A stretch of 32,000 nucleotides of DNA, from positions 1-32,000 of the forward strand of contig JAQTOB010000007.1 of assembly GCA_028713575.1 (NCBI GenBank). The letters run 5' to 3'. The position numbers were made by a program, and so were the translations under genes. Positions within the stretch are counted from its first letter, which is position 1. Every line of letters begins with the position of its first letter. Below the pieces are notes generated by a model that searched no databases, was not told where the DNA came from, and saw only the letters and a list, made by a program, of their open reading frames with translations. Below, piece after piece: positions 22-939 of this stretch. The stretch comes from Patescibacteria group bacterium (lineage in GTDB: Bacteria; Patescibacteriota; Patescibacteriia; UBA2591; UBA6264).

Positions 22-939
22 ATTTTAGAAACGGATATCAAAAAGCCAGAAAACCTTGTAGATAAATGGATTATTTCCCGGCTGAACACTTTGACAGAAA
101 ACTTGACTGACAATTTAGCGAAGTATGACATCGTGGCCGCGGCTAGATTTCTTTTGCCGTTTGTTGATGATTTGTCAAATTGGTATATTCGGCGTTCTAG
201 AAAAAGATTTCAGCGGCCGGAGAGCCCAGAAGAAAAAAAGACCGCTTCCGTTGTCCTGCGTCACGTCCTTTTGGAATTTTCAAAATTAGTCGCGCCGTTT
301 ACGCCCTTTATCAGCGAATATATTTATCAATCATTGAAAGGAGAAAAAGACGCGGAGAGCGTTCATCTTTGCCTTTATCCAAAAAGTGGTTTAAGAGACG
401 AAGCATTGGAAGAAAAAATGAAAAAGGTGAGGGAGATTATTGTCTTGGCTTTGGCGCAGAGGGCGGAAAAGGGGATTAAAGTCAGACAACCGCTCGCTTC
501 GCTTAAAATCAAAATTCAAAAATCCCCGAAGCAGAGCGAGCTCGCTACGGGGCAGGCAAAAATCAAAATTGACGAAGAATTGTATAATCTAGTTAAAGAA
601 GAAGTTAATGTTAAGGAAATTTTATTTGATGATAATTTAGAAGAGGAGGTGAAATTGGATACAGAGATTACCGAGGAACTGAGAAATGAAGGTGAAATAC
701 GGGACATTATCCGCCAGATTCAGAGGATTAAAAAAGAATTAAACGTTGAGCCGAAAAGCAAGGTTAGCTTGTATTTCGTTGACGAAGAGGAGAGAGAGTT
801 TTCAAAAAACATCAGGGAGACGATTACCAAGGAGACCTTGGTGGAAATAGTAGATGATGAAAAAAAGATTTCTTCACCGGCTGGAAAAAGCATAAAAATT
901 AAAGGGAAAGACGCCGCGGTTCTAGTCGGTATTGAGTAA
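22..939 (+). CDS. ileS: Isoleucyl-tRNA synthetase, C-terminal portion (anticodon-binding region plus C-terminal extension). The rest of the gene lies upstream of the window, and the reading frame is closed by TAA at 19-21.
   Basis: Translation contains ENLVDKWIISRLN and FVDDLSNWYIRRSRKRF, followed by ELRNEGEIRDIIRQIQRIKKELN. These are the characteristic class I IleRS anticodon-binding and C-terminal motifs. Similarity starts at the codon right after the TAA at 19-21. The TTG at 91 used by the ORF track is not the true start. Confidence 0.85.
   Translation: MLETDIKKPENLVDKWIISRLNTLTENLTDNLAKYDIVAAARFLLPFVDDLSNWYIRRSRKRFQRPESPEEKKTASVVLRHVLLEFSKLVAPFTPFISEYIYQSLKGEKDAESVHLCLYPKSGLRDEALEEKMKKVREIIVLALAQRAEKGIKVRQPLASLKIKIQKSPKQSELATGQAKIKIDEELYNLVKEEVNVKEILFDDNLEEEVKLDTEITEELRNEGEIRDIIRQIQRIKKELNVEPKSKVSLYFVDEEEREFSKNIRETITKETLVEIVDDEKKISSPAGKSIKIKGKDAAVLVGIE

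Follow-up and report, generated by a model that had tools for sequence, protein, structure and literature searches.

The locus

The window analysed here is a stretch of 32,000 nucleotides at the start of contig C7 (JAQTOB010000007.1, assembly GCA_028713575.1) of a Patescibacteria group bacterium, belonging to the candidate phyla radiation (CPR). Its genome, G000, comprises 692 kb in 24 contigs at 34% GC and is 99.5% complete. The contig begins within ileS, the gene for a type-2-like isoleucyl-tRNA synthetase (IleRS), of which the first ~650 codons are absent from the assembly. The remaining fragment carries the Pfam domains Anticodon_1 (residues 14-159) and DUF5915 (residues 210-301), and between these two domains sits a short, GC-rich, in-frame hairpin insert, which is the subject of this study. 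This insert is a canonical member of a hairpin family dispersed among genomes of the CPR/Patescibacteria. We consider it likely that it is a mobile-type miniature element that was copied into ileS and has since been carried as an in-frame passenger loop of the protein.

Orthologs of ileS are present in 41 of 41 related genomes, and the closest solved structure to the window protein is 8c8u (E 3.5e-33). An in-frame TAA within ileS at positions 19-21 of the window, 19 bases from the contig start, reads AAA (Lys) in a relative with 95% identity; the stop in the window is an error at the end of the contig or else a nonsense change.

The insert has the sequence CCCCGAAGCA-GAGCGAGCTC-GCTACGGGGCAGGC and is embedded in an array of A-rich heptamers (Table 1). 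A first-pass annotation of the window had reported the 12-mer AAAATCAAAATT at 505-516 and again at 559-570, the pairing of CCCCG (524-528) with CGGGG (548-552), the palindrome AGCGAGCTCGCT at 535-546 and a frame that stays open across the insert. We find all of these in the sequence, the pairing and the palindrome in the fold as well, and the translation is LKIKIQKSPKQSELATGQAKIKIDEEL. Although the 692-kb genome has 9 occurrences of the 12-mer, chance alone would hardly place two of them 54 nt apart. Folded as single-stranded DNA, the region reaches -9.4 kcal/mol (z = -2.98), a value equalled by 1 of 200 shuffles. All three sense frames are open across the element.

Table 1. Features of the ileS insertion and of the related module in the window, with the basis on which each was delimited.
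Feature	Position	Strand	Basis
3′ part of ileS (type-2-like isoleucyl-tRNA synthetase)	22..939	+	305 codons + stop (translation)
Heptamer array, left part: TTAAAAT CAAAATT CAAAAAT, coding KIKIQK	503..523	+	sequence; continuous in empty sites of L004 and P0002
Hairpin element CCCCGAAGCAGAGCGAGCTCGCTACGGGGCAGGC, 34 nt, coding PKQSELATGQA (codons 526-558)	524..557	+	empty-site comparison; family membership; identical in P0001
Outer stem, 5′ arm CCCCG, paired with 548-552	524..528	+	DNA fold; C-G pairs invariant in 18 family members
Variable inner hairpin, including the 12-nt palindrome AGCGAGCTCGCT (535-546); apical module GAGCGAGCTC	530..546	+	fold; module swaps in other copies
Outer stem, 3′ arm CGGGG, and conserved unpaired tail CAGGC, together the family signature CGGGGCAGGC	548..557	+	10-mer and 13-mer genome counts
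Heptamer array, right part: CAAAAAT CAAAATT, coding KIKI	557..570	+	sequence; empty sites
GC-rich two-hairpin module within repeat copy B (AATCATCGCAAAGCGAGATCCCGCTACGCGGG)	5440..5472	+	copy A versus copy B; shuffle test 6/20000

Filled and empty ileS sites

The size and borders of the insertion can be read from orthologous genes. We aligned 29 orthologs from related genomes and read their DNA, after which further homologs were added; full-length homologs were sought with the fragment padded in length with the N-terminus of a relative. An identical insert is found at 95% nucleotide identity in P0001, on a 517-kb contig from an independent metagenome, and thus is not an assembly artefact. It is missing in P0002, L002, L003 and L004 (75%, 71%, 60% and 56% amino-acid identity, respectively) and in ~25 further orthologs. 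The filled site of the window reads ...CAAAAATC|CCCGAAGCAGAGCGAGCTCGCTACGGGGCAGGC|AAAAATCAAAATT, while the empty sites read ...CAAAAATC|AAAAATCAAAATT in L004 and ...AAAAAATC|AAAAATTAAAATA in P0002, both with the junction AAAAATC|AAAAAT. The comparison with P0002 is precise and gives a net gain of 33 nt (11 codons), flanked on either side by a unit of a CAAAAAT-like run. The element itself counts 34 nt, as one terminal C is common to element and array.

These empty sites revise the insertion as it had been annotated. It had been given as 54 nt or 18 residues, with the 12-bp repeat as a flanking duplication. The empty sites yield 33 nt and 11 residues (PKQSELATGQA), and the 12-bp repeat is part of the CAAAAAT-like heptamer array, which is also there at the empty sites of P0002 and L004. 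Five heptamers are counted both in the window and in the empty L004 site, so the insertion created no duplication. Insertion without target-site duplication is the behaviour of IS200/IS605-type elements and of the PATE-like palindromes, and it sets the ileS insert apart from miniature inverted-repeat transposable elements (MITEs), which combine terminal inverted repeats with a target-site duplication of fixed length. Otherwise, what had been proposed is supported: the segment is a lineage-specific, in-frame palindromic insert in a loop predicted to be disordered, and it behaves like the Rickettsia palindromic elements (RPEs), with 11 residues in place of 18.

A model of the P0001 IleRS was built with AlphaFold2 from 35 aligned sequences (predicted local distance difference test (pLDDT) 89, predicted template modelling score (pTM) 0.83). 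In it, pLDDT falls below 50 in only two segments, 662-667 and 838-849, the latter nearly coinciding with the insert (837-847), which is flanked by a strand (826-831) and a helix (853-863). The model fits a tolerated, flexible surface loop outside the core of the fold.

A dispersed hairpin family

Copies of the hairpin were collected from sampled matches in nine related genomes and G000. All 43 hairpin-forming copies are built alike, as A-CCCC(R)-[variable inner hairpin]-CTACGGGGCAGGC-A, with a length of 31-44 nt. Among 18 distinct copies of 35-38 nt, 6 of the 11 predicted pairs show compensatory double changes. An excess of the 10-mer signature CGGGGCAGGC is seen in 11 of the 20 other genomes from the window's family. 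In six of these genomes the 10-mer has 20, 15, 7, 7, 7 and 5 matches, against 4, 0, 0, 0, 0 and 0 for reversed-pattern controls; the two richest are G014 (20 matches, control 4) and G017 (15, control 0). Its distribution is patchy even among congeners: G014 has 20 matches and G004 none, G016 has 7 and G010 none. Even sampling of the class gave 151 genomes, of which 17 contain the 13-mer CTACGGGGCAGGC, in 11 copies at most; controls matched 3 times in total. The sampled genomes are kin and not independent of one another.

In metagenomes, the subfamily to which the ileS insert belongs, CCCCGAAGCA-N6-18-GCTACGGGGCAGGC, is found at no fewer than 100 distinct loci; this number is a lower bound, and the per-locus statistics given below are among the matches listed. 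The apical modules between the fixed ends vary across these loci and are all self-complementary (GAGCAAGCTC, GAACAAGTTC, ATCCCTTCGGGAT, GACGCTCCGCGTC and others). The exact 34-mer of the window also occurs at an unrelated locus of another organism (L435/L446/L454). In other families of the class, the hairpin is found at the tip of larger inverted repeats. We also observed the CTACGGGGCAGGC hairpin inside a longer repeated unit with tRNA T-arm-like ends (GGTTCGAACCCC...ATCGTTCGACTGGGGGAG) in G012 (L282), G017 (L266/L283) and G005 (L261).

The first-pass annotation had counted an absence of related copies elsewhere in the genome among the outcomes that would speak against its proposal. G000 holds no other canonical copy, while many are found in related genomes and metagenomes; as the family is abundant outside G000 yet has no second canonical copy inside it, this within-genome test would nearly have misfired. 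A site at C3:3280 of G000 was considered as a sister copy and rejected, since it is without the 5′ arm, and is taken as chance. Looser patterns were of little use: AGCGAGN{2,4}CGCTACGNGGG, run against all genomes of the collection, returned chance matches only, in GC-rich genomes, and of the matches to AGCGAGN{0,6}CGCTAC only two sites in G000 are real, those in G015 and G008 looking random.

Copies inside genes

Like the RPEs, the family has many dispersed palindromic copies in related genomes, some of them in coding genes whose frame is kept open; copies occur in unrelated genes and also between genes. In G003 and G014, in-frame copies lie within the Pfam domains of QueA, Pth, an RsmI-like methylase, a PALP enzyme and an S-adenosylmethionine (SAM) methyltransferase, between the Pfam domains of the seryl- and threonyl-tRNA synthetases (SerRS and ThrRS), and at the C-terminal end of the alanyl-tRNA synthetase (AlaRS). 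In ileS, likewise, the insert sits between Anticodon_1 and DUF5915. The Pth loop is filled in G003 alone among 13 aligned genomes of the family, and G006 carries a different GC hairpin in this same loop.

Metagenome loci show the same pattern. Open frames of at least 50 codons on both sides mark 42 of the 100 loci as candidate in-gene sites. The element is in sense orientation at 36 of the 42 (36:6), compared with 60% expected from open frames (p = 3e-4). A length of 3n+1 between the fixed ends (34, 37 or 40 nt) is found at 40 of the 42 in-gene loci and at 44 of the 58 others (p = 0.012); this length corresponds to a net gain of 3n, as in ileS.

The IleRS linker as a hotspot

The array junction that is filled in the window holds other GC hairpins in other lineages. 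In G027 and P0022, ileS carries a GGCCCCTMCGGGG-AGTCGC...GCGAC-AGC element at this junction, in P0026 the hairpin CCTTCGACCCGAGCTCAGGGCGAGGGC and in P0014 the hairpin CTGCCTTGCCGGCAGACAGGC. Across lineages, five or more different hairpin types have thus settled in this linker, which shows it to be a reproducible hotspot where the targeting rule can be tested.

The G027-type element is a genus-specific double hairpin of 32 nt, AAAAA|GGCCCCTMCGGGGAGTCGCCAAAGGCGACAGC|AAAAAT (G027 L223-L229 and L230-L240; G043 L231-L243), with 6 copies in G027 and 8 in G043; the order's 53 other genomes have none. Its in-frame sites are in ileS, mnmA, an fmt-like gene and a MiaB-like gene (twice in tandem), as named from the translated flanks, and it is translated in two different frames. 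P0022 has two copies in one ileS, both within CAAAAAT arrays that are intact in the relative P0012.

In the family of the ileS insert, the flanks are mostly A-rich, with an A on both element borders in most copies and no single conserved tetra- or pentanucleotide seen. Tandem 7-8-mers such as CATTGGAA, CATAAGAA and CAATATC frequently enclose the hairpin core, and an exact 7-nt flanking repeat is present at 11 of the 100 loci, compared with 9 of 2000 permuted pairs, a ~24-fold enrichment. Arrays of this kind may also be visible in the proteins. The peptide KIKNQKSKIKN stands at this IleRS loop in many distant CPR proteins. Low-complexity inserts such as KSQKSKVKSQK, NLKSQNSKFK and IRNPKSEIRNPK were seen at several IleRS sites in P0011, P0018, P0032, P0040, P0042, P0051, P0054 and P0057; they resemble translated tandem arrays of 7-8-mers, such as those that flank the hairpins.

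Two further observations come from G000 itself. Positions 9388-9419 of contig C11 hold another double hairpin, AAACCCGCCAGAGGCGGGTCCGCCTTTGGCGG; it is followed by AAATCAAAATTC, the A-rich context also seen in ileS. Several contigs repeatedly show modules of the GGTCCGCCTTTGGCGG and CCTGCCTGCCGGCAGGCAGG types.

Probable origin and proposed movement of the element

We regard the following course of events as probable. A GC-rich imperfect palindrome of 33-34 nt would have been copied into ileS between two A-rich heptamer units (AAAAATC|AAAAAT), in a run that encodes the linker between the anticodon-binding and C-terminal domains of IleRS. There it would be translated as a disordered loop of 11 residues, inherited at least since the split from the 95%-identical relative. 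Because the gain is divisible by three, no sense frame is closed and the linker is a flexible surface segment, ileS would stay intact and the element would persist. The element itself may be selfish or neutral, moved in trans by an enzyme encoded elsewhere, and would probably travel as single-stranded DNA into exposed or slipped stretches, for instance at the tips of other hairpins or in arrays of tandem 7-8-mers. By analogy only, a Y1/HUH transposase, similar to the tyrosine transposases associated with repetitive extragenic palindromes (REPs; the transposases are called RAYTs) or to those of IS200, would be the leading candidate mobiliser.

G000 does encode such enzymes, among them a RAYT-like protein at C8:8748-9377. 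There are five matches to Y1_Tnp (PF01797), and one RAYT-like gene scores 61.5 bits on the NCBIfam model REP_Tyr_transpos, below its cut-off of 80. A role of Y1/RAYT as mobiliser is nonetheless not supported: the repeats that flank the gene in G000 belong to a separate family of ~95 nt (see below), and co-occurrence with the element across the class is not significant. No Y1 transposase was found in G027, the bearer of the double hairpin. The lack of a Y1 association removes the easy explanation for mobilisation.

Several results weigh against a copied-in mobile hairpin. Of the 17 genomes that bear the element, 12 have PF01797, as do 78 of the remaining 134 (Fisher p = 0.43), and no Y1 genes were found in G103 and G177, which have 3-4 copies of the element each. 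Exact searches with the tail and searches allowing 1-2 mismatches found no second canonical copy in G000; with a single canonical copy in a genome that is 99.5% complete, current mobility there is unproven. Targeting of arrays is a tendency and not a rule, given flanking repeats at 11 of 100 loci. The low pLDDT at the insert comes partly from the scarcity of aligned homologs there. Lastly, the direction of change, which we read as a gain, rests on parsimony; direct repeats in the flanks favour deletion, and the heptamer array is still there at the empty sites.

This last point invites the opposite history, in which the segment would be ancestral in these IleRS genes and would have been deleted in relatives by recombination between heptamers. 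We hold this to be improbable. Outgroups at 75%, 71%, 60% and 56% identity and ~25 more orthologs all are without the insert, L004 has five heptamers like the filled site and not one fewer, and the insert belongs, either way, to a dispersed family.

The main rival, which we rate as unlikely but above deletion, is a spread without any transposase, where microhomology between arrays would let template switching or short-patch gene conversion copy the hairpin from one array to another. The frequent position of the core between tandem 7-8-mers and the ~24-fold enrichment of exact 7-nt flanking repeats are as this explanation would have them, as are the same flanks, CAAAAATC|...|AAAAATCAAAA, in ileS of G000, in G014 (L298) and in P0026, and the failure to detect an enzyme association in the Y1 co-occurrence. 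However, an exact flanking repeat is missing at 89 of the 100 loci, with many copies in non-repetitive flanks or hairpin tips, and the occurrence of one hairpin within differing arrays across genomes (CATTGGAA, CATAAGAA, CAATATC) is hard to fit to copying driven by homology.

About on a par with deletion, or slightly behind it, we place the possibility that the hairpin is a functional signal selected by the host, such as an expression-regulating structure in RNA or DNA, or a loop that benefits the protein. Strong conservation of the ends across the class, covarying stems and the sense bias at candidate in-gene loci (36:6, p = 3e-4) would be expected of such a signal. Its patchy presence among congeners and the copies in unrelated genes and between genes would not, nor would a loop that is predicted to be disordered and a site at which different hairpin families substitute for one another.

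An in-situ origin, by a replication template switch that copied the upstream sequence CGCTCGCTTCG backwards with no mobile family involved, is very improbable and was rejected: the insert bases CGAAGCAGAGCG do match the reverse complement of 491-501 at 11 of 12 positions, a marginal similarity reached by 186 of 20000 shuffles, but CGAAGCA is part of the conserved 5′ end of the family at more than 100 loci, the identical 34-mer occurs at an unrelated locus, and L004 has the same upstream sequence without the insert.

A more far-reaching possibility, which we think rather unlikely, is that these elements are autonomous-looking modules of a new kind of ultra-small mobile DNA, with structure-specific entry into single-stranded DNA exposed at slipped tandem 7-8-mer arrays and at hairpin tips, and with an enzyme other than the known Y1 transposases. 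Such entry would explain the nesting of hairpins, the swapping of tips and the independent strikes on the same protein loops by different families. The A-rich heptamer and octamer arrays of CPR genes (e.g. those translated as KNQKSKIK) would then be landing pads or footprints.

Relation to known repeats

The RPEs of Rickettsia, RPE-1 to RPE-10 (Ogata et al. 2000/2002, refs 13-14 in PMC3733652), are reportedly palindromic repeats found between genes and in frame in housekeeping genes. The ileS-type elements share with them the dispersed palindrome, the intergenic as well as in-frame positions, the translation as surface segments and a reduced, AT-rich host genome. They differ in size (31-44 nt, versus roughly 100-150 nt reported for RPE-1), in host phylum, in their modular, exchangeable tips and in a tendency to sit in 7-8-mer arrays. 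Given their size and host phylum, we do not file the ileS element as a member of the Rickettsia RPEs.

The small dispersed repeats (SDR) of heterocyst-forming cyanobacteria, attributed to Elhai and colleagues (2008), are said to be imperfect palindromes of ~20-30 nt, nested, without obvious target duplication and sometimes in conserved genes. By this description, the ileS-type elements are alike in being tiny, nested, in genes and free of target duplication, in a different phylum.

REPs tagged with GTAG/CGTC are palindromes of 20-40 bp with a stem of 5-13 bp and a short unpaired tail; some lie within genes and encode extra residues, and their families are species-specific or shared between species, with mobilisation by RAYTs being hypothesised (Di Nocera et al. 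2013, PMC3733652). A survey of REPs in 8 phyla reported none from Patescibacteria (PMC3733652). The ileS-type elements are similar in size and stem, being 31-44 nt long with 4-5 bp in the outer stem and 4-8 bp in the inner one. Unlike tagged REPs, their conserved unpaired end is CAGGC/GCCTG, while GTAG/CTAC is base-paired inside the stem; they number 1-20 copies per genome, a low figure, and they show no statistical link to RAYT (Y1) genes.

The REPIN/RAYT systems and the palindrome elements derived from IS200/IS605 (PMC3116915; Ton-Hoang 2012, in PMC3733652) offer another parallel, being hairpins without genes that leave no target duplication. As in REPIN/RAYT systems, G000 encodes RAYT-like genes, one of them between inverted repeat copies. 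In contrast to REPINs, the ileS-type hairpin is single and does not form inverted doublets, it shows no significant co-occurrence with Y1 genes, and the repeats flanking the RAYT-like gene are of the ~95-nt family.

Our literature search found no paper describing such elements in Patescibacteria, and the element, whose nearest known counterparts are the RPEs and the intragenic REPs, is apparently an RPE- or intragenic-REP-like element undescribed for the CPR in the literature searched. What we add is a defined family signature, the correction of the flanking repeats, the IleRS hotspot and the negative Y1 test. With its fixed ends and exchangeable tip, the family is spread across a class of Patescibacteria and is among the smallest repeated elements known within genes. 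It would account for a kind of extra loop that is specific to a lineage and occurs in essential CPR proteins, and it carries a warning for annotation: the flanking repeats of such loops should not be taken as target duplications.

Other repeats and hairpins of the window

The window contains two members, A (1003-1100) and B (5413-5538), of a repeat family of ~95 nt with ~28 copies in G000, often in tandem, with the pattern AAAATCRCRCCAAATTGAAATTTTCG...CTTTATTGRTGCG...GGGGTCAGACCCCA and ending in GGGGTCAGACCCC. At G000:C8:8530-9580 (L155), inverted copies of this repeat directly flank the gene of a 209-aa RAYT-like Y1 transposase, which gives this CPR genome a REP/RAYT-like arrangement of ~95-nt repeat and RAYT-like gene. 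Copy B contains an extra module (Table 1), directly 5′ of AAAAATC, that had been proposed to be the same small element as the ileS insert. The two are the only matches of GCARAGCGAG-N2-4-CGCTACG in G000, and their similarity is real (6/20000 shuffles). The module is not a sister copy of the ileS element; it is a related but different hairpin module, belonging to the variable multi-hairpin inserts of homologous repeat units in G009, one of which contains CCGCTAAGCGGGGCAGGC.

In the window, repeat A follows ileS directly (1002-1100), but in the 95%-identical relative (L328 14768-14866) it comes 5.8 kb after the gene; hence, the gene order has changed at this repeat. Just past repeat A and ahead of the gene with its start at 1251, there is an intergenic GC hairpin, TCGCCTCCGCCAACTGGCGGACGGCGAA (1136-1163, -21.7 kcal/mol). 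Another GC-rich nested hairpin, GCGTCTTTTCCGCCCGAGGCGGATCCGCCTCCGGCGAAA (5924-5962, -20 kcal/mol), is in frame and translated as SVFSARGGSASGEKS in the gene of a Wzy_C/TPR membrane protein (5551-7602), ahead of the Wzy_C domain.

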